Shown here: one piece after another, positions 5,078-35,862 of the stretch
How the letters are laid out: each line of letters starts with the position of its first letter
How positions within the stretch are numbered: the first letter of the stretch is position 1
Sequence record: OM632671.1
Strand: one strand, 5' to 3'
Origin: Escherichia phage BEU50
Length of the DNA stretch: 64,000 nucleotides
The notes under the pieces: generated by a model
The model's database searches: none
What the model was told of the DNA's origin: nothing
What the model saw: the letters and a program-made list of their open reading frames with translations, nothing else
Translations under genes and position numbers: made by a program

Positions 5078-7789
5078 ATGAAAGAATTTTACTTAACGGT
5101 TGAACAGATTGGTGATTCAATTTTTGAACGTTACATCGATTCTAATGGCCGTGAACGTACTCGTGAAGTAGAATATAAACCATCACTGTTTGCTCATTGT
5201 CCAGAAAGTCAGGCTACGAAATATTTCGATATCTACGGTAAACCGTGTACTCGTAAGTTGTTCGCTAATATGCGTGATGCCTCCCAATGGATTAAACGCA
5301 TGGAAGATATCGGACTTGAAGCACTTGGCATGGACGATTTCAAATTGGCGTATTTGTCTGACACTTATAACTATGAAATCAAATACGACCATACAAAAAT
5401 TCGTGTGGCTAACTTCGACATCGAAGTAACATCTCCGGATGGGTTCCCTGAGCCGTCACAAGCAAAACATCCTATTGATGCTATCACCCATTATGACTCA
5501 ATTGACGACAGGTTCTACGTATTTGATCTATTGAATTCTCCATATGGTAATGTGGAAGAATGGTCTATCGAAATTGCGGCTAAGCTTCAAGAACAAGGCG
5601 GTGATGAAGTTCCATCCGAAATTATCGACAAAATCGTTTATATGCCGTTCGATAACGAAAAAGAATTGTTGATGGAATATCTCAACTTCTGGCAACAGAA
5701 AACTCCTGTCATTTTGACTGGATGGAACGTTGAGTCATTTGATATTCCATATGTGTATAACCGAATCAAGAATATTTTTGGCGAATCTACTGCGAAACGT
5801 TTATCACCACATCGTAAAACTCGTGTTAAAGTTATCGAAAACATGTATGGTTCTCGTGAAATCATTACATTGTTCGGTATCTCTGTTCTTGATTACATTG
5901 ACCTTTACAAAAAATTCTCTTTTACCAATCAACCGTCGTATTCTCTGGATTACATTTCAGAATTTGAATTGAACGTTGGTAAACTGAAATATGACGGCCC
6001 TATTTCTAAGCTTCGTGAAAGCAATCACCAACGATATATTTCTTATAACATTATCGACGTGTATCGTGTATTGCAAATTGATGCTAAGCGTCAGTTCATC
6101 AACTTGAGCTTGGACATGGGTTATTATGCTAAGATACAGATTCAATCTGTGTTTAGCCCAATTAAAACATGGGATGCTATTATTTTTAATAGCCTTAAAG
6201 AGCAGAACAAGGTGATTCCACAAGGTCGTTCTCACCCAGTTCAACCTTACCCTGGTGCTTTTGTTAAGGAACCTATTCCAAATCGATACAAATATGTAAT
6301 GAGTTTCGACCTTACATCTCTGTATCCAAGTATTATTCGCCAAGTGAATATTAGCCCGGAAACAATAGCAGGAACGTTTAAAGTAGCTCCACTGCATGAT
6401 TATATTAACGCAATCGCTGAACGTCCTTCAGATGTGTACAGTTGCTCTCCTAACGGCATGATGTATTATAAAGACCGTGATGGTGTAGTTCCAACTGAAA
6501 TCACTAAGGTCTTTAATCAACGTAAAGAACATAAAGGTTACATGCTTGCAGCTCAACGTAATGGTGAAATAATTAAAGAGGCATTGCATAATCCTAATCT
6601 TTCTGTTGACGAACCATTAGATGTTGATTATCGTTTCGACTTCAGTGATGAGATTAAAGAAAAGATTAAAAAGTTGTCTGCTAAATCTCTTAATGAAATG
6701 TTGTTTAGAGCTCAACGTACTGAAGTTGCAGGTATGACTGCACAGATTAACCGTAAATTGCTCATCAACTCACTTTATGGTGCACTTGGCAACGTTTGGT
6801 TCCGTTATTATGATTTGCGTAATGCTACTGCAATCACAACATTTGGTCAAATGGCTTTACAGTGGATTGAACGTAAAGTTAATGAATATCTGAATGAAGT
6901 TTGTGGTACAGAAGGTGAAGCTTTCGTTCTATATGGTGATACAGACTCCATTTACGTATCTGCAGATAAAATTATTGATAAGGTTGGTGAATCTAAATTC
7001 CGTGATACCAACCATTGGGTAGACTTCTTAGATAAGTTCGCTCGTGAACGTATGGAACCTGCTATTGATAGAGGTTTCCGTGAAATGTGCGAATACATGA
7101 ACAATAAACAACACTTAATGTTCATGGACCGAGAAGCTATCGCTGGTCCTCCGCTCGGTTCTAAAGGTATTGGTGGATTTTGGACTGGTAAGAAACGTTA
7201 TGCATTAAACGTGTGGGATATGGAAGGAACCAGATACGCTGAACCTAAGCTTAAAATCATGGGTCTCGAAACACAGAAATCTTCGACTCCTAAAGCAGTA
7301 CAGAAAGCTCTTAAAGAATGTATTCGTCGTATGCTTCAAGAAGGTGAAGAATCATTACAAGAATATTTTAAAGAGTTTGAAAAAGAATTCCGTCAATTGA
7401 ATTATATTAGCATCGCGTCGGTATCTTCTGCGAATAACATTGCTAAATATGATGTAGGTGGATATCCAGGACCTAAATGCCCGTTCCATATTCGTGGAAT
7501 TCTGACGTATAACCGGGCTATCAAAGGTAATACCGATGCACCGCAAGTTGTAGAAGGTGAAAAAGTATATGTTCTGCCTTTACGTGAAGGAAACCCATTC
7601 GGTGATAAATGTATCGCATGGCCTTCTGGTACTGAAATCACAGATTTAATTAAAGACGATGTACTTCATTGGATGGACTACACTGTTCTCCTTGAGAAGA
7701 CATTTATTAAACCACTTGAAGGATTCACATCAGCAGCGAAACTCGATTACGAGAAGAAAGCATCTCTGTTCGATATGTTCGATTTTTGA
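5078..7789 (+). CDS. 43: DNA polymerase gp43 (family B), RB69-type, 903 aa
   Basis: Translation matches the RB69 polymerase sequence as I remember it (MKEFYLTVEQIGDSIFERYIDSNGRERTREVEYKPSLFAHC...), exonuclease motifs FDIE and YNIIDV, polymerase motifs SLYPS, YGDTDS. Confidence 0.95.
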   Translation: MKEFYLTVEQIGDSIFERYIDSNGRERTREVEYKPSLFAHCPESQATKYFDIYGKPCTRKLFANMRDASQWIKRMEDIGLEALGMDDFKLAYLSDTYNYEIKYDHTKIRVANFDIEVTSPDGFPEPSQAKHPIDAITHYDSIDDRFYVFDLLNSPYGNVEEWSIEIAAKLQEQGGDEVPSEIIDKIVYMPFDNEKELLMEYLNFWQQKTPVILTGWNVESFDIPYVYNRIKNIFGESTAKRLSPHRKTRVKVIENMYGSREIITLFGISVLDYIDLYKKFSFTNQPSYSLDYISEFELNVGKLKYDGPISKLRESNHQRYISYNIIDVYRVLQIDAKRQFINLSLDMGYYAKIQIQSVFSPIKTWDAIIFNSLKEQNKVIPQGRSHPVQPYPGAFVKEPIPNRYKYVMSFDLTSLYPSIIRQVNISPETIAGTFKVAPLHDYINAIAERPSDVYSCSPNGMMYYKDRDGVVPTEITKVFNQRKEHKGYMLAAQRNGEIIKEALHNPNLSVDEPLDVDYRFDFSDEIKEKIKKLSAKSLNEMLFRAQRTEVAGMTAQINRKLLINSLYGALGNVWFRYYDLRNATAITTFGQMALQWIERKVNEYLNEVCGTEGEAFVLYGDTDSIYVSADKIIDKVGESKFRDTNHWVDFLDKFARERMEPAIDRGFREMCEYMNNKQHLMFMDREAIAGPPLGSKGIGGFWTGKKRYALNVWDMEGTRYAEPKLKIMGLETQKSSTPKAVQKALKECIRRMLQEGEESLQEYFKEFEKEFRQLNYISIASVSSANNIAKYDVGGYPGPKCPFHIRGILTYNRAIKGNTDAPQVVEGEKVYVLPLREGNPFGDKCIAWPSGTEITDLIKDDVLHWMDYTVLLEKTFIKPLEGFTSAAKLDYEKKASLFDMFDF

Positions 7790-7829
7790 TATAATGTCAT
7801 GGACGGTAAACTAATTAAATGAGAGAAAT

Positions 7830-8465
7830 ATGAAAACTACTCCTATTACTATCGCTATTGACGCAATCATAAAACAAGCTTCTTCTTTGGCCGCTATGGC
7901 CAAAGTAATTAGTCAAAACCCTGCTCGTTATAATGCTATTCTAGAAACTCTTCGACGCCCGGGACTTAGTAATTATGAAAGCCGAGTAATTATTACAGGT
8001 GTTGGTAAGAATGCTAATATTGCAACTAAAGCTTCTGAGACATTTGCTTCACTCGGTATCCCGAGTATGTACTTGAACACTGGGCATTATTCTCACGGTG
8101 ATGCAGGATTCATTGCGCCTAATGATGTGTTGATTCATATTAGTCGTTCTGGTAAAACTGAAGAAATGATAGGCGTGGCTAAGCATCTTAAAATGATTCG
8201 ACCGAACGTCAAACAGATTCTGTTGCATTGTAACCCAGACATTCCACAAGAAAATGAAGCCCTTTTTGATTACTCTTTCTGTACAGGCATCGCAGTAGAG
8301 GTTGATGAGAATTCTCTGGCTCCGACTATGTCCACTACATTGTTGTTAGCGCTTATCGATACGTTTGCTATCAACCTTTCGTCTGAACGTGGATTTACCT
8401 CTAATGACTTCCTTAAGTTCCACCCTGGTGGTGCACTAGGTGCCATGTTACGAGGCGAACAATGA
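7830..8465 (+). CDS. SIS-domain sugar-phosphate isomerase, KdsD/GutQ-type arabinose-5-phosphate isomerase catalytic domain without CBS domains
   Basis: Motifs GVGKNANIATKASETFASLG, HGDAG, ISRSGKT, LAPTMSTT, HPGGALG align with the KdsD SIS domain (ATFASTG, HGDLG, ISNSGES, LAPTSSTT, HPGGALG) from memory. Confidence 0.7.
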   Translation: MKTTPITIAIDAIIKQASSLAAMAKVISQNPARYNAILETLRRPGLSNYESRVIITGVGKNANIATKASETFASLGIPSMYLNTGHYSHGDAGFIAPNDVLIHISRSGKTEEMIGVAKHLKMIRPNVKQILLHCNPDIPQENEALFDYSFCTGIAVEVDENSLAPTMSTTLLLALIDTFAINLSSERGFTSNDFLKFHPGGALGAMLRGEQ

Positions 8466-8605
8466 AAGCAATAACAATAGGACTTTTACTATTGATGCTT
8501 GTCATGACTATCTACTGGAGCTTAACGGCTCCAGTAATGATTCCAACACTTGTAATTGGATGGATTATGATTGGACTACAAGCAAAGTATGAATGCTTTA
8601 ACTAG
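8462..8605 (+). CDS. Small hydrophobic membrane protein (47 aa), start overlaps the isomerase stop (ATGA)
   Basis: MKAITIGLLLLMLVMTIYWSLTAPVMIPTLVIGWIMIGLQAKYECFN; below the ORF-track size cutoff. Confidence 0.3.
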   Translation: MKAITIGLLLLMLVMTIYWSLTAPVMIPTLVIGWIMIGLQAKYECFN

Positions 8606-8618
8606 AATAGTGTACAAT
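8594..8618 (+). promoter_or_regulatory. Possible MotA-dependent middle promoter (MotA box TGCTTTA, 12 nt, TACAAT)
   Basis: aTGCTTTAactagaatagtgTACAAT about 30 nt upstream of the 8647 start. Confidence 0.35.
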
Positions 8619-8646
8619 ACTCCTACTTACCAATGAGGACCACAAC

Positions 8647-10332
8647 ATGAAAAAAGCTGTTATTCTTGGTGCTGGACTGGCAACTCGTTTATATCCAATT
8701 ACTCACCATATTCCTAAGGTGCTTGTTAACTATAAACAAGACACTATTCTGAGCAATTTGTATACAATTTATTCTGACCTAGGCGCAGATGAAATTATTG
8801 TAGTAGTTCATTCAAAATTTGCTGAAACTGTTCGAGCTTATTGTGAGCAAGAAGGGTTCAATGTGACTATTCGTACAGTTGATGAAGCGTATGGTTCTGC
8901 TTATGCTCTTGCTAAATTACACAAAGATTTAGACGGCCATAATGTAATTGTTAACTGGTGTGATATTATTCCGGATTTTGGTTCATGGTCTTGGAATGTT
9001 AACGCAATCTATGTTAAGGGTGACGAATGTCGATATAATTTCGACGGTGAAAATATCACTAACGTAGGTTCAACAGGTGGTAATGTTGTAGGAATTTATC
9101 AGTTCAAAGACTGGGAATTCTATATGGGTTCTACTGATGAGGAAATTCATGAATACTGCAAAGGACGTGATTTCGTAGAATTCCTTTACGGCAGCGCATT
9201 CAATAAATCAGAGCTTATGAATCTAATTGATTTAGGTGATATGCCTAAACTTGAAAAAGCTCATGAAGTTCGTGAACTTAATCGTAGTTTTAATGCAGTT
9301 GAAATTGGTGAAGAAACTGTAACTAAATTCGCATTAACCGAACAGGGCCGAGCTCTTCAGAAAGATGAGATTTCGTGGTATTTGAAAGTGAAATCAGATT
9401 CAGTCCCTCAGTTAGTTTCTGTTAATGAAAATAACTTTGAAATGGAACGCATTAAAGGTAAGCCGGCATTTGAATATATTAAATCCAAATCAAGTCTTGC
9501 TCGTCCACAAATTGTTGATGCAATTTTAGATGCACTGAAATTCAGCACAGACACTTATTTTGTAAGTCCTGAAACTGTTCGTCGTGATTTCACTAAAGAA
9601 TTCTATACGAAAGTTATTGATCGTTGTGAAAGCATTCAACCATTGATTGATTCATTTGGTAAAATCACACATGTGAACTACACTAAGATTGGACGTCTGA
9701 AGCCAATGCTGAAACAAGCTTTAGAACACCTTATTCGTTATCATAACCGTTCTCAGGGACAGTACTCTGTTATTCATGGTGACCCGAACTTCAGTAATAC
9801 TATGATTACTGATAACGGCGAAGTCAAATTTATCGACCCTCGTGGATATTTTGGCGAAACCAAGATTTACGGGCCAAAATTGTACGATGAAGCTAAAGTG
9901 CTTTACGCTGTTTCAGGTTATGATGAATTCAATGCTAATCCGACCTGGGGACAGTTTACTATTGATGAAACAACTTGTAATGTGACTATTAACATCAATC
10001 CATTAGTTTACAAATATGGAAAGATGAGTTCGTTTAACGAGTATCATCATTTGGCAGTGGCAATTATCTGGATTGCATTAGGTGGTTATTTCAAGAATAA
10101 TCCACTTAAAGCGGTAGCCGCATATTATAAAGGTATGGAACTTCTGACTAAGCAATTACGTAACATGGGCCGTGTACTTCAGGACGGCTCTATTAGTTAT
10201 GACGTAGCAGAACCTGTAACGGCTACTCTGATTACAAAAAATCCTGGTAAATGGGTACTAACTGATAAAGAAACTGGTGTTTCCTATCGTCCAATCGGTG
10301 GCGATATCACTCATCAATGGGAACGAATTTGA
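8647..10332 (+). CDS. Bifunctional sugar-1-phosphate nucleotidyltransferase (N-terminal) / APH-fold anomeric sugar kinase (C-terminal)
   Basis: N-terminal MKKAVILGAGLATRLYPIT (RmlA/GlmU-type G-x-G-T-R-L motif); C-terminal HGDPNFSNTMITDNGEVKFIDPRGYFG (APH/choline-kinase Brenner motif HGDxxxxN and DxxG). Confidence 0.65.
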   Translation: MKKAVILGAGLATRLYPITHHIPKVLVNYKQDTILSNLYTIYSDLGADEIIVVVHSKFAETVRAYCEQEGFNVTIRTVDEAYGSAYALAKLHKDLDGHNVIVNWCDIIPDFGSWSWNVNAIYVKGDECRYNFDGENITNVGSTGGNVVGIYQFKDWEFYMGSTDEEIHEYCKGRDFVEFLYGSAFNKSELMNLIDLGDMPKLEKAHEVRELNRSFNAVEIGEETVTKFALTEQGRALQKDEISWYLKVKSDSVPQLVSVNENNFEMERIKGKPAFEYIKSKSSLARPQIVDAILDALKFSTDTYFVSPETVRRDFTKEFYTKVIDRCESIQPLIDSFGKITHVNYTKIGRLKPMLKQALEHLIRYHNRSQGQYSVIHGDPNFSNTMITDNGEVKFIDPRGYFGETKIYGPKLYDEAKVLYAVSGYDEFNANPTWGQFTIDETTCNVTININPLVYKYGKMSSFNEYHHLAVAIIWIALGGYFKNNPLKAVAAYYKGMELLTKQLRNMGRVLQDGSISYDVAEPVTATLITKNPGKWVLTDKETGVSYRPIGGDITHQWERI

Positions 10333-11078
10333 TACATTATCTCTACAAAACTACTAATCTTATAAACGGTAAAGTTTATTTAGGAATGCACTCGGCTGAA
10401 GAAGCCGAGCCTTTAGATTTATATAAAGGTTCTGGTAAATTATATAAAAAGGCTGAAAGGAAATACGGTAAGGAAAATTTTCTTAAAGAAATCATTTCCT
10501 ACCATAGCTCAAGAGAAGAATTAAAAATAGCTGAAAAGGCTCTAATAACATTAGACATAGTTAAAGACCCGAATTATTACAATCTTAAAACTGGTGGCGA
10601 AGGTGGTTCTGACGGGTTATCCCAAAGGTCCAAGGATAAAATTTCTAAGGCAAATAAAGGACGTTTAGTTGGTGATAAAAACCCAAGATGGGGTAAAACT
10701 TTGTCAGCTGAATCTATAGCTAGGGGTAAAGAAAAGCACAGGAGGTATGGTAAACCTGCATTACATGGTCTAAAGATTAATGTAGATGGCAAATATTATG
10801 AATCCTGTCGGGAAGCGGCTAAAGATTTGGGTATATCTTCTGCCACGATTCAAAAGAGAGTAAAATCGCCTAAATATCTTAATTATCGATATCAGGACGA
10901 AAGCAAAAATGCTCACAAGTCTCAAAAATTTGTTAAAATAAACGAAAATTACTATGAATCTCTTAGGATAGCTGAAAAGAAAACGGGTATTCCTAGAAAG
11001 CGTATAGCTGATAATATTAAAAATTCTATTGAAGGATATTGCTATGAAACCATTACATCTTTGCGTGGACGTCGATGA
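10317..11078 (+). CDS. GIY-YIG homing endonuclease (seg-like) with NUMOD-type DNA-binding repeats
   Basis: N-terminal YLYKTTNLINGKVYLGMH (GIY-YIG core); repeated KISKANKGR / GK-x-x-S-x-E motifs; overlaps neighbours at both ends as typical of free-standing HEGs. Confidence 0.65.
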   Translation: MGTNLIHYLYKTTNLINGKVYLGMHSAEEAEPLDLYKGSGKLYKKAERKYGKENFLKEIISYHSSREELKIAEKALITLDIVKDPNYYNLKTGGEGGSDGLSQRSKDKISKANKGRLVGDKNPRWGKTLSAESIARGKEKHRRYGKPALHGLKINVDGKYYESCREAAKDLGISSATIQKRVKSPKYLNYRYQDESKNAHKSQKFVKINENYYESLRIAEKKTGIPRKRIADNIKNSIEGYCYETITSLRGRR

Positions 11079-11418
11079 TTGTATAACAGAGTGGAATAAC
11101 AATCGTGATTACGTGAACTTCAAACCAGACGTCGAAATGGTGTCTGCCATTAATGCCCTGTATGAGGCAGGGCATACCATAACGCTTTACACTGCTCGCG
11201 GTATGAAGTCAGTAGGTCCTGGTCGTATAGCAATTGACATTCTCCCAAGTCTGATTCAGAACTTGGCAAACATTGGCTTGAAGTACCATAATTTGCTAAC
11301 ACATAAACCAGTATATGATTGGATTATCGACGACAAAGCTATGCGTCCTGACGAATTCAAAGCTCTTATGAATAAAGGCGAATTCGAAACATTTAAATCA
11401 TATAAACCGAATCTATAA
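11044..11418 (+). CDS. HAD-superfamily phosphatase (small, KdsC/GmhB-like)
   Basis: Motif I LCVDVDDCIT (DxDx[T/V]); about 125 aa; ATG at 11044 preferred over 11029. Confidence 0.55.
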   Translation: MKPLHLCVDVDDCITEWNNNRDYVNFKPDVEMVSAINALYEAGHTITLYTARGMKSVGPGRIAIDILPSLIQNLANIGLKYHNLLTHKPVYDWIIDDKAMRPDEFKALMNKGEFETFKSYKPNL

Positions 11419-11464
11419 TAATTTAAGTAAGACCTGCAAAAACCATCGCATCAATTAACGTGAG

Positions 11465-12637
11465 ATGCAAAAAAAAATGAATACTTTTAAAATCGGAACG
11501 AATTTTGATTTAGCTCTTCTTGATAAAATCGTAGAGCTCAATAAAACTTATCCTAATAGCTTGATAAACGAAGTATACGGCTCTACAAGAGAAATGGCTT
11601 TTGTAGCAGCCAGACCTGATTTTAGGCTTCCTGACGTTGACAAAAAGATGTTAGAAGATTACGTTAAACGTTGTAACGAATTAGGTATTTGCTTTAACTA
11701 TACACTCAACACGATAAATCCTGGTTCAAAAAGAGAACTAGTTGAGTGGAAGAAGAAAGCTATTCAGGATTATGTTCAGTATCTTTGGTCAATAGGCGTA
11801 TGGCGTATTACTATCGCTAACCCTGTTGTTATGGAAATTGTTCGTGAAGTCAATAAAGACATTGAGATTGAAGTTTCAACAATTCTACATGTCGATGCTG
11901 TAACTCAAATCAAATACTTGCATGACCAATATAATATCAAAAAGGTCTGCTGTGGAATTCATAAGAACCGTTCAGTTTCTTTCCTGAAGCGTGCAGCAGA
12001 GTTTTGCAATAAGAACAATATAATATTTGAAGTTCTTGTAAATGAGTTCTGTTCTAATGCTGGTAAAGGGTATACAACACATTGTAGCTATCGTGACTCT
12101 TGCTATATTTTCCATAGTACTGATGTTACAGCTGATGATGCTAAATCCTTAAACGGATATCCAATGCAGCACTGTATTAAAGCTCGTGATACAGACCCAT
12201 TTAACTGGTTGAGAACTCGTTTTGTTCGTCCTCAAGATTTGAAACTTTATAATGATATTGGTATCACTCAATTCAAAGTTTCAGGACGTACAGGTAGCAC
12301 AGACTACATTTTGAAAGTTCTTGAAGCATACGCTTCTGAAAAGTTTGAAGGTAATTTGTTAGAACTGTGGAAGCCTTTAGAGACTATTTTCACTCTTGAA
12401 AACGAAACTGAGTTTTCACATACGGTAAATATTGAAACCTCTTTGTTAGATGGCTTTTTAGAAAAAAGGTGGTTCAGACATCCAGATTTCGATTGTGCTA
12501 ATGAAATCTGCGGGACGACGTGTACATATTGTGAAAGATATTATAAACGTCAGTTATCTAAAAATGGGTTATCAGAAAATTCTATATCTATTATTGATAT
12601 AACTAACTCTGACGACGCTTTGAGGTACCCGGAATGA
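11465..12637 (+). CDS. Cys-rich protein with U32-family-like features (function unknown)
   Basis: EVLVNEFCSNAGKGYTTHCSYRDSC and FKVSGRTGSTDY resemble U32 family signatures (E-x-F...C...C and K-I-E-G-R-x-x-S-x-x-Y); C-terminal CANEICGTTCTYCERYY cysteine cluster; weak, from memory. Confidence 0.3.
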   Translation: MQKKMNTFKIGTNFDLALLDKIVELNKTYPNSLINEVYGSTREMAFVAARPDFRLPDVDKKMLEDYVKRCNELGICFNYTLNTINPGSKRELVEWKKKAIQDYVQYLWSIGVWRITIANPVVMEIVREVNKDIEIEVSTILHVDAVTQIKYLHDQYNIKKVCCGIHKNRSVSFLKRAAEFCNKNNIIFEVLVNEFCSNAGKGYTTHCSYRDSCYIFHSTDVTADDAKSLNGYPMQHCIKARDTDPFNWLRTRFVRPQDLKLYNDIGITQFKVSGRTGSTDYILKVLEAYASEKFEGNLLELWKPLETIFTLENETEFSHTVNIETSLLDGFLEKRWFRHPDFDCANEICGTTCTYCERYYKRQLSKNGLSENSISIIDITNSDDALRYPE

Positions 12638-12873
12638 TTTCTAGAAAAACTTTTAATTATAAACTTAATGAAGAGATTTTGACTATGAAACTGAACACCA
12701 ACGAACAAATTCTTAAAAAGGCCCTTATGGGCCTGTTTGAAACCAAAGCGGCTAAAGTGATTAAAGAACCTATTCAATTGGAATACTATGCTGATGCATT
12801 TCTTCATAGTGTTCTTGGAAGTATCGATGCTGAAGCTTTACGTTATATCAACATTGCCAAGAAATTCAAATAA
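12634..12873 (+). CDS. Hypothetical protein (79 aa)
   Basis: ORF with ATG overlapping upstream stop. Confidence 0.3.
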   Translation: MISRKTFNYKLNEEILTMKLNTNEQILKKALMGLFETKAAKVIKEPIQLEYYADAFLHSVLGSIDAEALRYINIAKKFK

Positions 12874-12896
12874 GCTTTACGAATTGAGTATATAAT
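12874..12896 (+). promoter_or_regulatory. Possible middle promoter for gene 42 (GCTTTA MotA-box-like, 11 nt, TATAAT)
   Basis: aaGCTTTAcgaattgagtaTATAAT 20 nt upstream of the gene 42 ATG. Confidence 0.35.
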
Positions 12897-12915
12897 AAAT
12901 TGTATTGAGGTAAAC

Positions 12916-13632
12916 ATGGGAAAACATAACACAATGAAATATATCAAAGCCGCAGATTTTCAAGCCGCATTTAAAGCAGTCAATCGTGAAATTTTAGAAA
13001 ACCCGGAATTCGTAACTGATTCTCGTATTGGGCGTTGTAATGAAATTGGGTCTATGACAGTAGTTGTTGACACTCCATCATCATTCAAAATGACCGACCC
13101 ACGTATTAACCGCATCTCTTATGAATATGCCGAAGACTTCTGGAAGTTTATGATTTCTGGTGGTACCAACGCAGAAGAAGCGTTTAAGGCATATCCTAAT
13201 GTCGCTAAATTTATTTCTAAACCAAAATCAGATGTTTTGCCGGCGAACTTCAACACTTTCTATGGTCCTCGCATTGCGGCCCAATTACCAGCTCTTCTAA
13301 AAGAACTTAAAGAGAAGCCTAACTCTCGAAGAGTTGTGTTCCAAATTCTAGAAAGTTCTGATCAGGCTTTGCTTGATTCAGACGAAACGCTTGAATATCC
13401 ATGTACTGACTCAGTGACTTATTATATTCGTGATGGTAAGCTTTATACCCACTGTCATATGCGTTCTCAGAACTGTGCTGTTGTTATGCAGTTGGATTTT
13501 TATCTCCAAGGAAAATTACTTCATTATATCGCTAACGAATGTGGTGTAGAAGTTGGTGATTATACTCATACCATGGTAAGTGCCCATGTGTTTGAACGTG
13601 ATTTTGATTATGTTAAAGGATTCCTTGACTAA
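12916..13632 (+). CDS. 42: dCMP hydroxymethylase gp42-like (thymidylate synthase fold)
   Basis: TS-fold motifs (RRVVFQILESSD, EYPCTDSVTYYIRDGKLYTHCHMRSQN, H..VFERD); T4 position between 43 and uvsX. Confidence 0.7.
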   Translation: MGKHNTMKYIKAADFQAAFKAVNREILENPEFVTDSRIGRCNEIGSMTVVVDTPSSFKMTDPRINRISYEYAEDFWKFMISGGTNAEEAFKAYPNVAKFISKPKSDVLPANFNTFYGPRIAAQLPALLKELKEKPNSRRVVFQILESSDQALLDSDETLEYPCTDSVTYYIRDGKLYTHCHMRSQNCAVVMQLDFYLQGKLLHYIANECGVEVGDYTHTMVSAHVFERDFDYVKGFLD

Positions 13633-14531
13633 TGGCTATTTTCCGCGTACCTATTTTGAGTATGCGGTCTTATGAAACTGGACAGTATGCCATCCTTAAG
13701 GATGGCAACTTCCAACTTCATTTGCACCGTGCTAATCCAGGTGATGTGATTACATATCCACGTAATGCATCCGATATTAAAGAATGTGAACGTCTTTTCC
13801 CAGAATTTAAGTTTGTTCCATTATGGTATAAAGATAACGCGTATAACACTCGTAAATATTTCTGGTCTGAAAATGAATTTGTGGTTGATTCATTAATCGC
13901 TTATTATGATTGTGATTTTCTAATCACAGATATCACTGGATACGACGGCGCTTTTGATGTAGAATTCAATTTCAATATCACTGCAGACCCTAATAAACCA
14001 CGTTTTTATATTGACGAATTCTTAAAAACCGACATGTTGTCGGTTAATCGTTCAATCCAAACAACTGTGTTGAATAAACGTCAAAAGGAAGTGCTGGTTA
14101 ACGCAGGTGCAGATGGTAATAAGATTATCATAACCCAGAAAGTTATACGTCCTTCCATCATGCAGCGTCTTGTAGGTGATTTAGCTCCTATTCATCTAGA
14201 TGGTATTTTTCATCCATTTCGAATTAGTGACCCGTGCTATCGGTTTGAACAAGTGGTTGAATGTGCAATTCAATTAGGCCAACCGCTTTATATAACCGAT
14301 CCAAATAATAGCTTCGACAGAAATAAGTATCCTGAAGAAGCGCTGATTCGAATTTTTAAACCAACTAAAACTGAGTACTATCAAATTCTTAAAGGACGTC
14401 CGAAGATTCAATATTTCGAAAATCCTGAAGAAGTATTCCATCCAGGTCTTGGTGAGTTCATCTACTTTAATGCTTTAATTTCTTCACCGTATAATATACC
14501 TAAATACGAAGATGTCGTAATCGAGGAATAA
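13632..14531 (+). CDS. Hypothetical protein (299 aa) at the locus where T4 encodes beta-glucosyltransferase
   Basis: ORF with ATG overlapping gene 42 stop; no confident family assignment; position-based suspicion of a DNA-modification role. Confidence 0.4.
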   Translation: MAIFRVPILSMRSYETGQYAILKDGNFQLHLHRANPGDVITYPRNASDIKECERLFPEFKFVPLWYKDNAYNTRKYFWSENEFVVDSLIAYYDCDFLITDITGYDGAFDVEFNFNITADPNKPRFYIDEFLKTDMLSVNRSIQTTVLNKRQKEVLVNAGADGNKIIITQKVIRPSIMQRLVGDLAPIHLDGIFHPFRISDPCYRFEQVVECAIQLGQPLYITDPNNSFDRNKYPEEALIRIFKPTKTEYYQILKGRPKIQYFENPEEVFHPGLGEFIYFNALISSPYNIPKYEDVVIEE

Positions 14532-14532
14532 A

Positions 14533-15081
14533 ATGGCTAAAATTATTTTAGTAGATGGCCCGGATAATGCTGGTAAAACAACTTTCATTAATGACATAAT
14601 GGAAATTAGTGAAAGATATGTAAAGATTGATTTCCCTAAACGAACAGTTGATGGACGTTTCGATGTTAAGTCTCGAAATGAAGTTGGCTGTTTCGAAACG
14701 ATGTTGAATTATTTAGACCCTACTAAGATTTATCTGTTAGACCGTGGATATATTAGTAACTGGGTTTACGGACGTATTCGACAAGATGCGGACTCTGTTC
14801 TTGACGTTTATGAACAGGATTATGTTCGTCTTTGCCAAAACCATGATGTGTTCACAATTATTTTAACACGTAACGAAATGACTGAAAGTTTTGAAGACGA
14901 CCTTATTACTTTGTCTTCATTCGGTTTTAATACAGTCATTTCACATTTTGAAGAGTTTGCAATTCATAACAAAATCCAAACGTATCAATTACTTAATCAT
15001 GATGGTGCTAACAAAGTTATAGGATTTAATGCAAGCGAACGTAATGTTTTGATTACAGAAATCATCAAATGGGCTCGTTAA
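14533..15081 (+). CDS. P-loop nucleotide/nucleoside kinase-like protein
   Basis: Walker A VDGPDNAGKTTF (thymidylate/dNMP kinase-like), 182 aa. Confidence 0.5.
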   Translation: MAKIILVDGPDNAGKTTFINDIMEISERYVKIDFPKRTVDGRFDVKSRNEVGCFETMLNYLDPTKIYLLDRGYISNWVYGRIRQDADSVLDVYEQDYVRLCQNHDVFTIILTRNEMTESFEDDLITLSSFGFNTVISHFEEFAIHNKIQTYQLLNHDGANKVIGFNASERNVLITEIIKWAR

Positions 15082-15179
15082 GAGCCATTTAAAGTTTTAA
15101 ATGCTGTATAACCCTTAGTATATAATCATCTTATCTTTTAAACATGAGTAAAATATAATGATGCCTATGGAAAAATACA

Positions 15180-16352
15180 ATGTCTGATTTAAAATCTCGT
15201 CTGATTAAAGCTTCTACTTCTAAAATGACTGCAGACTTGACTAAGTCTAAGCTGTTTAATAATCGTGATGAAGTCCCTACTCGTATTCCGATGTTGAATA
15301 TTGCATTAGGTGGTGCACTGAATGCAGGGTTGCAATCAGGCTTAACTATTTTTGCTGCTCCTTCTAAACACTTTAAAACGTTGTTTGGGCTGACTATGGT
15401 TGCAGCGTATATGAAGAAATATAAAGATGCAATCTGTTTGTTTTATGACTCAGAATTCGGTGCTTCAGAATCTTATTTTCGTTCAATGGGTGTTGATTTA
15501 GACCGTGTAGTTCATACTCCGATTCAATCTGTCGAACAACTTAAAGTCGATATGACTAATCAGCTTGACGCTATTGAACGCGGTGATAAAGTTATTATCT
15601 TTATTGACTCGATTGGTAATACTGCATCTAAGAAAGAAACCGAAGATGCATTGAACGAGAAAGTTGTAGGTGATATGTCTCGTGCTAAGGCACTTAAATC
15701 TCTGTTCCGCATTGTGACTCCTTATCTGACTATTAAAGATATTCCATGTGTTGCAATTAACCATACAGCAATGGAAATCGGCGGATTGTATCCTAAAGAG
15801 ATTATGGGCGGTGGTACAGGTATTCTTTATTCTGCCAACACGGTATTTTTTATCTCTAAACGTCAGGTTAAAGAAGGTACAGAATTGACCGGTTATGACT
15901 TCACGTTGAAAGCAGAAAAATCTCGCACAGTTAAAGAGAAATCTACTTTCCCGATCACGGTTAATTTTGATGGCGGTATTGACCCATTCAGTGGCTTGTT
16001 AGAAATGGCAACTGAAATTGGTTTTGTAGTTAAGCCTAAAGCCGGTTGGTATGCTCGCGAATTCCTTGACGAAGAAACAGGTGAAATGATTCGTGAAGAA
16101 AAATCATGGCGTGCTAAAGCTACTGATTGTGTAGAATTCTGGGGACCTTTGTTTAAACACAAACCTTTCCGAGATGCAATTGAAACTAAATATAAACTAG
16201 GTGCTATCTCTTCTATTAAAGAAGTTGATGACGCTGTTAATGACCTTATTAATTGCAAAGCAACAACTAAAGTTCCGGTTAAAACTTCTGATGCTCCGTC
16301 TGCAGCAGATATAGAAAACGACCTTGACGAAATGGAAGATTTCGATGAATAA
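15180..16352 (+). CDS. uvsX: RecA-like recombinase UvsX
   Basis: 390 aa; RecA core (FAAPSKHFKT P-loop, IFIDSIGN); T4 synteny. Confidence 0.9.
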   Translation: MSDLKSRLIKASTSKMTADLTKSKLFNNRDEVPTRIPMLNIALGGALNAGLQSGLTIFAAPSKHFKTLFGLTMVAAYMKKYKDAICLFYDSEFGASESYFRSMGVDLDRVVHTPIQSVEQLKVDMTNQLDAIERGDKVIIFIDSIGNTASKKETEDALNEKVVGDMSRAKALKSLFRIVTPYLTIKDIPCVAINHTAMEIGGLYPKEIMGGGTGILYSANTVFFISKRQVKEGTELTGYDFTLKAEKSRTVKEKSTFPITVNFDGGIDPFSGLLEMATEIGFVVKPKAGWYAREFLDEETGEMIREEKSWRAKATDCVEFWGPLFKHKPFRDAIETKYKLGAISSIKEVDDAVNDLINCKATTKVPVKTSDAPSAADIENDLDEMEDFDE

Positions 16353-16686
16353 TCTCGATGATTTAAATCTAGAAATCGTTGATGAATCCCCTTCTTCGGA
16401 AGGGGAAGACATTCGCAAAGAACGAGTGTTTAATGAATCTCTTAAAATTATCCGTTCAGCAATGGAAAATGTCATTCAAGAGATTCTGATTACACTTGAA
16501 GACGGTTCCCATCATATAGTCTATATTACAAAACTAGACTGGGTTGATGGTAAAATCGTAATGGACTTTGCAGTTCTTGACCAGGACAGAAAAGCAGAAC
16601 TTGCACCACATGTTGAAAAATGTGTTACAATGCAAGTACAACAAGCTTTTAATGAACGAACCAAGAAAAAATTTAAATTCTTTTAA
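16345..16686 (+). CDS. 40: gp40-like head vertex assembly protein
   Basis: ATG at 16345 overlaps uvsX stop; about 113 aa; T4 position between uvsX and 41. Confidence 0.4.
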   Translation: MNNLDDLNLEIVDESPSSEGEDIRKERVFNESLKIIRSAMENVIQEILITLEDGSHHIVYITKLDWVDGKIVMDFAVLDQDRKAELAPHVEKCVTMQVQQAFNERTKKKFKFF

Positions 16687-22853: not shown

Positions 22854-22941
22854 AATATCTCCTTAGTTACCTATTATTTATTACGCTTTATAAAATTAAT
22901 GTTAGAATTAACTCTCTTATACTGAATTGAAAGGAAAAATA

Positions 22942-23463
22942 ATGGCACACTTTAACGAATGTTCACAACTTATTTCTGGTGTTGATAAAGCAGAAGAAGC
23001 TTATTTTAATGCTCTGATTCACGAAGATAAAGACCCACTGCAGGTAATGCTTGATATGCAGAAATCTTTACAGGTTCGTCTGGCAAATGACAAGCCTGAA
23101 CATAACAAACATCCTGATGAATTGGCCACTGCTGGTGATGTTGTTGATTGGCTGCGTAATCAGAAAGATTATATTGATGATGAATTCCGTGAACTGCTGA
23201 CTTCACTTGGTGGTATGAGCAATGGTGAGAAAACCGCTAGCTCTGTATGGAAGCCATGGAAAGCACAACATGCTGAATATCGAAATCGTCGTATCGATGA
23301 ACTGTCTCCTGAAGACCAGCTTGAAATTAAATTCGAGATGATTGATATCCTCCACTTTGTTCTGAATATGTTCCAAGGTCTGGGTCTTTCCGCTGAAGAA
23401 ATCTTTAAACTTTACTACTTGAAAAACCAACACAACTTTGAACGTCAGGATAATGGTTACTGA
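22942..23463 (+). CDS. 56: dCTP pyrophosphatase gp56-like (MazG-like)
   Basis: About 173 aa; T4 position near 61; motif content DELATAGDVVDWLRN...EFRELL...DILHFVLNMF. Confidence 0.6.
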   Translation: MAHFNECSQLISGVDKAEEAYFNALIHEDKDPLQVMLDMQKSLQVRLANDKPEHNKHPDELATAGDVVDWLRNQKDYIDDEFRELLTSLGGMSNGEKTASSVWKPWKAQHAEYRNRRIDELSPEDQLEIKFEMIDILHFVLNMFQGLGLSAEEIFKLYYLKNQHNFERQDNGY

Positions 23464-33244: not shown

Positions 33245-35065
33245 ATGATTAAAAATGAAATTAAGGTATTGTCAGATGTAGAACATATTAAGAAACGTAG
33301 TGGTATGTATATTGGTTCTTCTGCTAAAGAAGCACATGAGCGTTTTTTGTTTGGTAAATATCAACAAGTTGAATATGTTCCTGGTCTGGTTAAATTAATC
33401 GATGAGATTATTGACAACTCGGTTGATGAAGCTATTCGTACATCATTTAAGTTTGCAAATAAAATTGATGTGCAAATTAAAAATAATCAAGTTTCGGTGG
33501 AAGATAACGGACGTGGTATTCCTCAAGGTTTAGTTACCGACCAAACGGGTGAACAAATTCCTGGGCCTGTAGCAGCCTGGACTATTCCAAAGGCTGGTGG
33601 TAACTTTGGTGATGACTCTGAACGCAAGACTGGTGGTATGAACGGTGTAGGGAGTAGTTTAACTAATATCTTCTCTACGTTGTTTACAGGCATCACGTCA
33701 GATGGCGAAAATGAAATCACTGTTAACTGTTCAAACGGAATGGAAAACAAATCATGGTCTTCTAAGAAATCTAAAGGTAAAGGCACTAAAGTAATCTTCA
33801 CTCCTGATTTCTCTTCATTTGAAGAGCATAATTTATCTCAAATTTATTTAGATATTACTTTAGACAGACTTCAAACATTGGCAGTCGTTTATCCTGATAT
33901 CAAGTTCACATTTAATGGTAAAAAGGTTGATGGTAATTTTAAACGATTTGCTAAACAATTTGGTGAAGATAACATCATTCAAGAAAATGATAAAGTCTCT
34001 ATAGCATTCACAACATCACCAGATGGCTTCCGTCATTTAACTTATGTGAATAACATCCATACTAAAAATGGTGGCCATCATGTTGAATGTGTAATGGATG
34101 ATATCTGTGAACATCTTTTGCCGGGTATTAAAAAGAAATATAAGGGTATTGAAGTCACTAAAGCTCGTGTTAAAGAATGCCTCACAATGTTGATGTTTAT
34201 TAGAGACATGAGCAACATGCGTTTTGATTCTCAGACTAAAGAACGTTTAACGTCAACGTATGGTGATATTCGTAATCATATCCAATTAGATGCTAAGAAA
34301 ATTGCTCAGGCACTTCTTAAAAACGAAGCCTTGATTATGCCTATTGTTGAAGCAGCATTAGCTCGTAAATTGGCAGCAGAAAAGGCTGCAGAAACTAAAG
34401 CAGCTAAAAAGGCGACTAAAGCTAAGGTTCATAAGCATATTAAAGCTAACCAATGTGGTAAAGATGCAGATACGACATTGTTTTTAACAGAAGGTGATTC
34501 GGCAATTGGTTATCTCATTGATGTTCGTGACCGTGAACTACACGGCGGATTCCCATTACGTGGTAAGGTGATGAATAGCTGGGGTATGTCATATGCTGAT
34601 ATGATGAAGAACAAAGAGCTCTTTGATATCTGTGCTATCACAGGTCTTATTCTTGGTGAAAAGGCAGAGAATACGAACTATCGTAATATTGCAATTATGA
34701 CCGATGCCGATCATGACGGTCTTGGAAGTATCTATCCAGCTTTGCTTGCTTTCTTTAGTAATTGGCCTGAATTGTTTGAACAAGGACGTATTCGCTTTGT
34801 TAAAACGCCTGTAATTATTGCACAAATTGGCAAAACTCAAAAATGGTTTTATACTGTAGCTGAGTATGAAGAAGCTAAAGATACACTGCCTAAGCATAGT
34901 ATTCGATACATCAAGGGATTGGGCTCACTTCAGCGAGATGAATATAAAGAAATGATTCAAAACCCTGTGTACGACGTAGTTAAACTTCCTGAAAATTGGA
35001 AAGAACTATTTGAAATGCTCATGGGTAACGACCCTGAACTCCGTAAAGATTGGATGCTAGGATAA
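33245..35065 (+). CDS. 39: DNA topoisomerase II ATPase subunit, fused gp60+gp39 form (606 aa)
   Basis: GyrB-like GHKL ATPase N-terminus (LVKLIDEIIDNSVDEA), TOPRIM (LTEGDSA ... DADHDG); continuous ORF of the length of the fused 60+39 form. Confidence 0.9.
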   Translation: MIKNEIKVLSDVEHIKKRSGMYIGSSAKEAHERFLFGKYQQVEYVPGLVKLIDEIIDNSVDEAIRTSFKFANKIDVQIKNNQVSVEDNGRGIPQGLVTDQTGEQIPGPVAAWTIPKAGGNFGDDSERKTGGMNGVGSSLTNIFSTLFTGITSDGENEITVNCSNGMENKSWSSKKSKGKGTKVIFTPDFSSFEEHNLSQIYLDITLDRLQTLAVVYPDIKFTFNGKKVDGNFKRFAKQFGEDNIIQENDKVSIAFTTSPDGFRHLTYVNNIHTKNGGHHVECVMDDICEHLLPGIKKKYKGIEVTKARVKECLTMLMFIRDMSNMRFDSQTKERLTSTYGDIRNHIQLDAKKIAQALLKNEALIMPIVEAALARKLAAEKAAETKAAKKATKAKVHKHIKANQCGKDADTTLFLTEGDSAIGYLIDVRDRELHGGFPLRGKVMNSWGMSYADMMKNKELFDICAITGLILGEKAENTNYRNIAIMTDADHDGLGSIYPALLAFFSNWPELFEQGRIRFVKTPVIIAQIGKTQKWFYTVAEYEEAKDTLPKHSIRYIKGLGSLQRDEYKEMIQNPVYDVVKLPENWKELFEMLMGNDPELRKDWMLG

Positions 35066-35862
35066 TGAATTATCGTAAAATTTATGATAAACTTATCGCT
35101 GCGGCTAAAAACCGCAGCATTATTCCTAATTATACTGAGACACATCATATATTGCCAAAATCTATGGGTGGGAGTAATGATAAATCAAATCTAGTTAAAA
35201 TGACCCCTAGAGAGCATTTTATCGCCCATTTATTGCTTTATAAAATTCATAAGAACCGTTCTATGCTTATGGCTATTAGAGCTTTTTACATGGGAGCTAG
35301 AAATTCTAGAGATTATGATTGGCTTAAACAAGAATTCTCTAAAGAGCACTCTAGATTTATGAAAGAATGGATTGCTAAAAACGGCAACCCATTTAAAGGT
35401 AAAAAACATACTAAAGCAACAAGAGAATTAATGTCACATATTGCTTCACAACGTATAGGCGAATTAAATCCATTTTATGGTAAAACTCATACGCAAGAAG
35501 CAATAGATAAAATAATACAGGCCAACAAGTTATCTTGGGAGAATGGGCGAAAAGCACCTGTAAAAACAAAAGAACACCAGGATAAAATAACTAAATCAAG
35601 AATGGAAACATTTAAAACAAAAGGATTTAAACCATACACTCCTAGGTCGGAAGAAACTAAAGCTAAGACTAGAGAGTTGTATAAATCTAAATATGAAAGA
35701 AGGCCTATAAGAATCACAAGTGTAAAAACAGGTGAAACTATTGATTTTAACTATCTTTATGAATTAAGAGAGTATTTAGATATAGGGTCTTCTAATATAT
35801 TGAAAGCATTAAATAATCCTAACAGAACCTGCAAAGGTTATAAAATGTGTTGGATGTCCTAA
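35065..35862 (+). CDS. HNH homing endonuclease (MobA-like position)
   Basis: ETHHILPKSMGGSNDKSNLVKMTPREHFIAH; N-terminus MNYRKIYDKL parallels the other two HNH paralogues; ATG overlaps gene 39 stop. Confidence 0.7.
   Translation: MNYRKIYDKLIAAAKNRSIIPNYTETHHILPKSMGGSNDKSNLVKMTPREHFIAHLLLYKIHKNRSMLMAIRAFYMGARNSRDYDWLKQEFSKEHSRFMKEWIAKNGNPFKGKKHTKATRELMSHIASQRIGELNPFYGKTHTQEAIDKIIQANKLSWENGRKAPVKTKEHQDKITKSRMETFKTKGFKPYTPRSEETKAKTRELYKSKYERRPIRITSVKTGETIDFNYLYELREYLDIGSSNILKALNNPNRTCKGYKMCWMS

Follow-up and report, generated by a model that had tools for sequence, protein, structure and literature searches.

Two genes at the beta-gt position of an RB69-like phage are predicted enzymes of arabinosyl-5-hydroxycytosine DNA modification

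Two genes lie between a thymidylate-synthase homologue and uvsX

We analysed a 64,000-nucleotide stretch of Escherichia phage BEU50 (OM632671.1; the window, at its full length) and, within it, two adjacent genes encoding a 299-amino-acid (aa) protein, here called GT1, and a 182-aa kinase, KIN; a second transferase, encoded at 35905-37005, is called GT2. GT1 and KIN are flanked by a thymidylate-synthase homologue (12916-13632) and uvsX (15180-16352), and are predicted to be enzymes of the pathway by which RB69-like phages come to carry arabinosyl-5-hydroxycytosine in their DNA. In T4, beta-gt and segA occupy this slot (Thomas et al. 2018, PMC6024577). An earlier note, made from the letters of this DNA, had placed two open reading frames (ORFs) of 299 and 182 aa at 13632-15081, assigned the pair to the beta-gt position and linked it to DNA modification. 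The coordinates proved exact, on the plus strand; the pair sits between the synthase homologue and uvsX, as beta-gt and segA do in T4; and both proteins are orthologues of RB69 pathway genes.

13632-14531, plus strand: GT1, ATG start, 299 aa, glycosyltransferase with a predicted GT-B fold; proposed base-proximal (alpha) arabinofuranosyltransferase acting on 5-hydroxycytosine; orthologues RB69 gp46:47, DLP3 gp79, Thanatos TH1_063 and bas46_0141
14533-15081, plus strand: KIN, ATG start, 182 aa, P-loop kinase of the thymidylate kinase family; proposed substrate a modified deoxycytidine monophosphate (dCMP); orthologues RB69 gp45, DLP3 gp78, Thanatos TH1_064 and bas46_0140

The GT1 start overlaps the synthase stop (TAATG, within gacTAATGgct), and one base separates the GT1 stop from the KIN ATG (GAGGAAtaaAATG), with a GAGGAA ribosome-binding site. 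As packed, synthase, GT1 and KIN, in that order, appear to form a translationally coupled three-gene unit. Generic scans of positions 7500-16500 returned 29 promoter-like sites (33.3 expected) and 4 terminator-like sites (4.5 expected), neither above chance. Because GT1 and KIN have homologues in 137 and 27 database clusters, respectively, recur in many phage records, keep many invariant residues and yield high-confidence structure models (predicted local distance difference test scores of 95.3 for GT1 and 88.0 for KIN), we regard both as real genes and not chance ORFs.

The locus belongs to a published pathway

The 2.3 kb around GT1 and KIN shared 98-99% nucleotide identity with about 150 Mosigvirus genomes, close matches including phage a20, NRG-P0074, Bas46 (ChristianSchoenbein), JS09 and phiC120. 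The gene order matched that of Bas46 and NRG-P0074. On nucleotide identity, the window is assigned to Mosigvirus, among the relatives of RB69, Bas46 and HY126. GT1 is mostly 'hypothetical' in public records and once 'glycosyltransferase'; many records name KIN 'thymidylate kinase'.

RB69 DNA was first reported as carrying arabinosyl-hydroxymethylcytosine (PMC6024577), a view revised to mono- and di-arabinofuranosyl-5-hydroxycytosine (Lee et al., NAR 2026, PMC13326640). In the revised pathway, RB69 gp48, a thymidylate-synthase homologue and flavin enzyme that uses O2, makes the 5-hydroxyl on dCMP, and RB69 gp159, a T4 gp1-type kinase, phosphorylates 5-hydroxy-dCMP to the diphosphate (PMC13326640). 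Expression of the synthase with the gp1-type kinase led to 5-hydroxydeoxycytidine (5-hydroxy-dC) in Escherichia coli DNA, and later arabinoses were put on DNA in vitro (PMC13326640). The same work labels RB69 gp46:47 'arabinosyltransferase 1' and gp45 'nucleotide kinase' as predicted roles (PMC13326640), and the Durham collection paper arrives at the same view for Mosigvirus NP (PMC13390438). Both functions are thus already predicted by Lee et al., and the locus has been described in RB69, Bas46, HY126, DLP3 and Thanatos; the two genes are not 'unassigned', as had been supposed.

GT1 adopts a predicted GT-B fold

Sequence searches gave GT1 no family. Neither GT1 nor any of 29 diverse family members matched Pfam or NCBIfam, including Pfam Glycos_transf_1 and Glyco_trans_4, and neither the GT1 sequence alone nor two profiles, one of 70 members and a broad one of 29, found a match among the PDB sequences. 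In PHROGs, GT1 falls in phrog_3891, 'unknown function'. Its structure model comprises two Rossmann-like domains and an inter-domain cleft, the GT-B fold (GT4-like), and structural matches included BshA (16.4), HepE (16.2), PimA (15.7), 9iqz (the HY126 transferase, 13.8) and T4 alpha-glucosyltransferase (13.1). The match to 6kih is shared with the published assignment (PMC13326640). The modelled fold identifies GT1 as a GT-B glycosyltransferase, so that its earlier description as a protein of 'no obvious family' is right at the level of sequence matches but not of fold, and GT1 does not put another kind of protein in the place of a glycosyltransferase.

T4 beta-GT was not among the structural matches, and GT1 showed no close likeness to it in sequence or structure; for want of similarity, we rejected GT1 as an orthologue of T4 beta-gt. 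We also rejected a structural-protein role for GT1 or KIN, given an enzymatic fold and a site among early nucleotide-metabolism genes. The remote-homology and structure-prediction check proposed for the pair gave a GT-B fold for GT1 and a thymidylate-kinase-like one for KIN.

Across 29 family members with identity down to 22%, residues S10, M11 and R12 (the SMRS loop), D24-G25-N26, R197 (FPFR(I/L)SD), T222 and N225 (TDPN) and H270 were invariant. K246 was nearly so (at least 90%), and a Glu four residues after H270 was conserved in all rows shown. R197, K246, H270 and this Glu fall in the C-terminal half and, if placed in the cleft, would be candidates for contacts with the nucleotide-sugar, for which GT-B enzymes use basic residues at the diphosphate and an acidic one at the ribose. 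The family is small, with 229 representatives among 1.84 billion protein clusters (E <= 1e-3), and constitutes an orphan GT-B family. GT1 itself is small and acidic (isoelectric point (pI) 5.3) and is 98.3% identical to RB69 ORF046c/047c. Here it adjoins, and is apparently coupled to, the synthase, and of the 53 metagenomic loci in which the GT1 ORF is complete, most are arranged alike. Separately from the kinase fusions described below, a second fusion type joins an N-terminal HAD-like phosphatase domain (DFDG motif) to GT1 (P0168, P0175, P0227, P0248 and L057:5452-7107).

GT1 probably adds the first arabinose

Gene distributions were obtained by tblastn over 50,697 phage records. GT1 occurred in 348, from phages of Escherichia, Acinetobacter, Klebsiella, Shigella, Serratia, Enterobacter, Proteus, Yersinia, Shewanella and others. 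GT2 occurred in 211, which apart from a few records with non-host names are Escherichia, Shigella and Acinetobacter phages only; Serratia, Klebsiella, Yersinia and Shewanella phages are absent from these 211 records.

Two phages with known modifications bear on the order of the transferases. Shewanella phage Thanatos carries a single pentose (PMC12838424); its cluster consists of TH1_060 (bifunctional enzyme), 061 (phosphatase), 062 (synthase), 063 (GT1), 064 (kinase) and 065 (U32), and no GT2-type gene was found in the 11 kb read around it. Serratia phage LC53 is mono-arabinosylated and Bas46 di-arabinosylated (bioRxiv 10.64898/2025.12.19.695335); LC53 carries GT1 and KIN, and no Serratia phage is among the GT2-bearing records. 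Because GT1 is present in mono-arabinosylated Thanatos and LC53, which are without GT2, and is the commoner of the two transferases, we place it next to the base. We are highly confident in the joint assignment of a GT-B transferase and a thymidylate-kinase-family kinase to this pathway, with GT1 as the base-proximal transferase.

KIN is a thymidylate-kinase-family protein with a Glu at the putative base-reading position

KIN carries the Walker A motif LVDGPDNAGKTT (residues 6-17). Searched alone, it gave weak P-loop matches that reached no Pfam threshold, and the NCBIfam dTMP kinase match scored 16 bits, below the cut-off of 83; its PHROGs family is phrog_761, 'thymidylate kinase'. The model has a P-loop kinase fold with thymidylate kinases (TMKs) closest, in agreement with published work (PMC13326640). 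With a broad alignment of 25 diverse members, including distant ones from related loci, the profile matched solved TMKs (5uiv, E 2.6e-13; 1tmk, 1.6e-11; 2v54, 6.3e-11; SPbeta YorR, 1.2e-10), and 16 of the 25 members matched Pfam PF02223 (E <= 0.01). By fold and family profile, KIN belongs to the thymidylate kinase family (PF02223), and the thymidylate/dNMP-kinase likeness first read from its Walker A motif stands (dNMP, deoxynucleoside monophosphate). The T4 gp1-type dNMP kinase (1dek/1del) was not the closest match in fold or sequence.

Among the 25 members, G9, K15 and R71 are invariant and D11 nearly so. From TMKs we take these to include the Walker A Lys, the P-loop acidic residue and the DR(Y) arginine. 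In TMKs, the P-loop Asp reads the 3'-OH, and the Arg of the SANRW segment hydrogen-bonds O4 of thymine. In a HMMER alignment, which is moderately reliable in this region, yeast TMK 'FSANRW' aligns with K46-S47-R48-N49-E50-V51 of KIN, so that a Glu replaces the Arg; a distant KIN member reads SANEF at the same segment. As a lead, a Glu in this position would suit the N4 amino group of cytosine, and its presence in place of the Arg would argue against dTMP as the substrate of KIN.

Two other kinase types were considered. We rejected a sugar kinase on the TMK fold and motifs, and because the sugar kinase is encoded elsewhere, in the C-terminal domain of a 561-aa enzyme. A kinase acting on polynucleotides or DNA bases, like the 5-hydroxymethyluracil DNA kinase, is disfavoured by best matches to mononucleotide kinases and by the conserved P-loop Asp.

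The earlier note had tentatively taken GT1 as a second-step modification enzyme and KIN as a kinase for a modified nucleotide or a sugar. The combination in which GT1 acts second and KIN phosphorylates a sugar has some logic, given that RB69-type DNA has two arabinoses, so that a second-step transferase must exist, and that the cluster does need a sugar kinase step. Both needs are supplied by other genes: the second-step enzyme is the gp3-type gene at 35905-37005, restricted to di- or tri-arabinosylating phages, and the C-terminal domain of the 561-aa enzyme provides the sugar kinase. GT1, moreover, is present in mono-arabinosylating phages, and KIN has the nucleotide-binding motifs and fold of TMKs. 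We consider this combination highly improbable. GT1 is most likely the first, base-proximal enzyme, and of the two substrates proposed for KIN, the nucleotide agrees with its fold and motifs while the sugar is unlikely.

GT1 and KIN are linked across distant viruses, with one exception

KIN occurred in 343 of the phage records and was distributed over hosts just as GT1 is, a near one-to-one co-occurrence. We then examined 56 IMG/VR loci seeded on GT1, among them the 53 with a full GT1 ORF. KIN lies directly downstream of GT1 in 37 of these 53 and directly upstream in 3 (adjacent in 40/53), and elsewhere in the cluster, 0.7-2.9 kb off, in 11 more, giving both genes in 51/53; no kinase was found in the remaining two (L055 and L057, the latter within 6 kb). 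The pair is present on jumbo-phage contigs of 216-356 kb, where KIN is 28% identical, in reversed order on a marine-type contig, and in phages with a Pol III-alpha polymerase. KIN and GT1 are not neighbours in the JS98 and Marfa groups. Four loci (L059 and L061-L063) combine a synthase, a distant GT1 homologue (hidden Markov model (HMM) E 1e-21 to 1e-24) and a kinase with an EGLDRxGKD P-loop.

Eight natural fusions of 519-599 aa, with GT1 N-terminal and the kinase C-terminal, were also found (P0240, P0254, P0255, P0260, P0264, P0278, P0280 and P0289). These are cluster representatives, each with a complete GT1 domain followed by a complete kinase domain. The four looked up came from contigs of four separate sequencing runs, and the neighbours of one are an isomerase, a bifunctional enzyme, a HAD-like protein and a U32 protein.

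Directly upstream of uvsX, and following the polymerase gene, Morganella phage MP1 encodes a kinase that is 54% identical and retains every motif (NC_031020.1 20500-21030; L086:7996-8526). A gp1-type dNMP kinase is present as well; a scan of 129 of the 163 kb of MP1 showed no GT1, hydroxylase, U32, sugar genes or GT2. The kinase stands alone in MP1 and can therefore be retained without GT1; we rejected a strict dependence of KIN on GT1 because of this phage. MP1 also encodes a dCTPase homologue, a DenB-like endonuclease and an 'inhibitor of host transcription', which in T4 accompany cytosine-free DNA. The figures on co-occurrence and linkage, the fusions and the retention of the kinase alone in MP1 are new here.

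These observations bear on two alternative roles. KIN might be a general or back-up pyrimidine dNMP kinase, its link to GT1 reflecting inheritance of the region as a block. MP1, which has KIN alone in the same position upstream of uvsX, fits this, as do the many records that call KIN a plain thymidylate kinase and the dispensability of the TMK of jumbo phage PCH45 (bioRxiv 10.64898/2025.12.19.695335). However, the two genes stay linked in very distant viruses whose clusters are rearranged (jumbo contigs, Pol III-alpha phages and Pootjesviridae-like loci), and fusion proteins exist. The KIN family also lacks the Arg that we take to read thymine in TMKs, and gp1 already serves dTMP in T4-like phages. 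We regard a housekeeping role as quite unlikely.

Alternatively, GT1 might arabinosylate free 5-hydroxy-dCMP or its diphosphate, with KIN as a dedicated kinase for arabinosyl-5-hydroxy-dCMP; the polymerase would then incorporate an already glycosylated nucleotide, and only later sugars would be added on DNA. The eight fusions, with separate runs behind the four looked up, favour such a route, as do the match of 348 to 343 genomes in the same hosts, the adjacency or clustering in the metagenomic loci and the apparent translational coupling of GT1 and KIN in the window. MP1, with its intact kinase and neither GT1 nor hydroxylase in the part scanned, speaks against it, as does the separation of the two genes in the JS98 and Marfa groups. 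Fused enzymes, moreover, need not perform consecutive steps, and those of the cluster's own bifunctional sugar enzyme do not.

Other pathway genes encode the synthase, sugar supply and second transferase

The window holds further genes of the pathway:

7830-8465, plus strand: arabinose-5-phosphate isomerase (RB69 gp55 type), Pfam SIS; supplies arabinose-5-phosphate for UDP-arabinofuranose (UDP, uridine diphosphate)
8647-10332, plus strand: bifunctional sugar kinase / UDP-sugar pyrophosphorylase (AfhE type; RB69 gp52:53), 561 aa
11029-11418 (ORF bounds; start probably the ATG at about 11044), plus strand: HAD-family phosphatase (AfhF type; RB69 gp51), PHROG 1238
11465-12637, plus strand: U32-family protein (RB69 gp50), Pfam Peptidase_U32 at 42 bits, weak UbiU match
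12916-13632, plus strand: 5-hydroxy-dCMP synthase, 238 aa, Pfam Thymidylat_synt, at the T4 gene 42 position; first of the coupled three genes
22927-23463, plus strand: dCTPase (gp56 type), Pfam dUTPase_2; provides dCMP and removes dCTP
35905-37005, plus strand: GT2, GT-B arabinosyltransferase (RB69 gp3 / ORF003c type), 366 aa; proposed second-arabinose enzyme

Over all 238 aa, the synthase matched PDB 9iqc/9ir2/9iqu (E 7.9e-161). It is almost identical to this solved flavin-dependent enzyme of HY126 and is therefore a 5-hydroxy-dCMP synthase, not a dCMP hydroxymethylase. The reading of this gene as gene 42 with hydroxymethylcytosine chemistry accordingly gives way to 5-hydroxycytosine (PMC13326640). 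GT2 matched PDB 9iqz/9ir0, 'phage HY126 glycosyltransferase' (E 3.6e-250), and its role is taken from published work (PMC13326640), as are those of the isomerase (annotated 'arabinose 5-phosphate isomerase' in NRG-P0074), of the phosphatase (NCBIfam capsule biosynthesis phosphatase, E 2e-13) and of the 561-aa enzyme, for which PMC13326640 cites He et al. 2026. The last matched Pfam NTP_transferase at its N-terminus and NCBIfam nucleotidyltransferases, with weak APH/kinase matches C-terminally. The gp56-type gene is annotated dCTPase/dCDPase in Bas46.

Three smaller ORFs accompany these genes. A 79-aa basic protein (12634-12873, plus strand; pI 9.4; phrog_8601; RB69 gp49 position) is encoded between the U32 and synthase genes and is conserved, yet only in some related clusters. 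A 253-aa homing-endonuclease-like ORF (10317-11078, plus strand) separates the bifunctional enzyme gene from the phosphatase gene and overlaps an end of each; NRG-P0074 has it ('homing endonuclease') and Bas46 does not. Directly upstream of GT2, a 270-aa ORF with a NUMOD3 motif (35050-35862, plus strand) is a likely homing endonuclease.

Public annotations of the sugar and modification cluster are often wrong. Many records label the synthase gene (12916-13632) dCMP hydroxymethylase or thymidylate synthase. NRG-P0074 (L001) mislabels the bifunctional enzyme as 'dCMP deaminase', the phosphatase as 'phosphoheptose isomerase' and the U32 protein as 'peptidase', and one of the LC53 (OP617331.1) features listed at the GT1 match is labelled 'putative RNA polymerase binding protein'.

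The U32 family takes in O2-independent hydroxylases, namely RlhA, which makes 5-hydroxycytidine in ribosomal RNA, TrhP and UbiU/V. Because of this family membership, the U32 protein of the window may be an anaerobic cytosine C5-hydroxylase, acting in reserve for the O2-dependent synthase or in its place. RB69 gp50 has been labelled 'sugar or heterocycle reductase' (PMC13326640).

The U32 protein (11465-12637, plus strand) has at least 10 invariant cysteines, including C344-x4-C349-x3-C353-x2-C356. Related loci with a U32 gene include L054:6954-8051, L056:5783-6865, L060:6885-7973 and L065:12301-13401. Three Pol III-alpha phage loci run kinase, GT1, U32 and have no thymidylate-synthase homologue within 6 kb; a fourth U32 locus showed no synthase homologue on a 13.4 kb contig that ends just past the U32 gene. 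The Acinetobacter and Pseudomonas phage loci lack U32, as does the JS98 group.

Secure identities and a tentative order of steps

The identities of GT1 and KIN are secure, but the order of the steps is not. In the order that we lean towards, the dCTPase would provide dCMP, which the synthase would hydroxylate to 5-hydroxy-dCMP, as shown in the literature. KIN would phosphorylate 5-hydroxy-dCMP to the diphosphate beside the T4 gp1-type dNMP kinase, and a host nucleoside diphosphate kinase and the phage polymerase would put 5-hydroxycytosine into DNA, an incorporation that the literature shows in E. coli. With UDP-arabinofuranose made by the isomerase, bifunctional enzyme and phosphatase encoded upstream, GT1 would then place arabinofuranose on the 5-hydroxyl, leaving an alpha-linked base-proximal sugar to which GT2 (35905-37005) would add the second arabinose. 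Our preference for this full order, with glycosylation of DNA by GT1, is slight. It fits the T4 paradigm, the demonstrated incorporation of 5-hydroxy-dC, the demonstrated addition of later sugars on DNA, and MP1.

Several points weigh against it. Purified DLP3 GT1 supplied with UDP-arabinofuranose (UDP-Araf) or UDP-arabinopyranose (UDP-Arap) did not arabinosylate 5-hydroxycytosine DNA, nor did transferases supplied singly act on DNA with this base, Lee et al. demonstrate no activity for GT1 or KIN orthologues, and the authors cannot tell whether the first sugar is added on the mononucleotide or on DNA (PMC13326640). The gp1-type kinase already handles 5-hydroxy-dCMP, which in this order would seem to make KIN superfluous in T4-like phages; all of them nonetheless conserve it. 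Co-occurrence, adjacency, coupling and fusions are more easily explained if GT1 and KIN share one small-molecule substrate. Glycosylation of DNA by GT1 leaves the universal second kinase, the kinase-transferase fusions and the inactivity of GT1 on DNA in vitro unexplained. Finally, the Thanatos orthologue TH1_063 was reported to make UDP-xylose from UTP and xylose-1-phosphate in vitro (PMC12838424), at odds with a simple transferase role.

TH1_063 (L064:4995-5897) is 47% identical to GT1 and matched the GT1 HMM at E 3e-118. Pyrophosphorylase activity is unexpected for a GT-B protein, and the Thanatos cluster already has the nucleotidyltransferase TH1_060; the assignment of TH1_063 as a UDP-xylose pyrophosphorylase deserves re-examination.

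Arabinosylation ahead of replication would account for the second kinase, the fusions and the inactivity of GT1 on DNA together. With 5-hydroxy-dCMP covered by the gp1-type kinase, a second kinase needs another job, and GT1 is small and acidic, with best structural matches to transferases with small phosphorylated acceptors. Host base-excision glycosylases act on 5-hydroxycytosine in DNA, and hiding the base from them would be advantageous. GT1 was inactive on 5-hydroxycytosine DNA, and the possibility is one that the authors leave open (PMC13326640). Against this, no phage is known to glycosylate a base ahead of replication, leaving the route without precedent, and un-glycosylated 5-hydroxy-dC is readily incorporated in vivo (PMC13326640). 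Weighed with the linkage data and with MP1, we consider a nucleotide-level route possible but rather unlikely, and tentatively retain glycosylation by GT1 after incorporation.

Implications

The first sugar on the DNA of RB69-like phages is assigned to the GT1/KIN locus. The modification shields the phage from restriction enzymes, CRISPR-Cas and DNA glycosylases and exposes it to type IV systems such as GmrSD/BrxU, and many therapeutic phage candidates against E. coli, Klebsiella and Acinetobacter carry the locus. The genes are already assigned in the literature, and the finding therefore adds little as it stands. The linkage figures, the fusions and the MP1 counter-example sharpen two questions: the job of the conserved second kinase, and whether the first arabinose is placed on DNA or on a nucleotide. 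If true, the nucleotide-level route would be the first pre-replicative base glycosylation in any virus; it would alter the accepted scheme of phage DNA glycosylation and offer an enzymatic route to glycosylated deoxynucleoside triphosphates.

Comparison with known systems

The closest comparison is RB69 itself, where a frameshift in the reference record splits GT1, which is one intact ORF here. The window differs further in the homing endonuclease inside its sugar gene block; otherwise nothing material differs.

A more distant system follows the same three-gene logic. In Rhizobium phage RL38J1, gp216, gp215 and gp214 are a 5-hydroxy-dCMP synthase, galactosyltransferase 1 and a nucleotide kinase (PMC13326640), but the sugar differs, being galactose and then glucose (PMC13326640). 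The four metagenomic loci with a distant GT1 homologue (L059 and L061-L063), putatively of Pootjesviridae, resemble the RL38J1 order, with identities to the window of 22-27% for GT1 and 11-18% for the kinase.

For KIN, two comparisons apply. Like the T4 gp1-type kinase (RB69 gp159), which phosphorylates 5-hydroxy-dCMP, it is a P-loop nucleotide kinase. Compared with members of the TMK family (vaccinia 2v54, yeast 1tmk and SPbeta YorR 2axp), KIN has a deletion of about 18 residues after FPKR and, unlike them, is genomically tied to a glycosyltransferase and sometimes fused to one.

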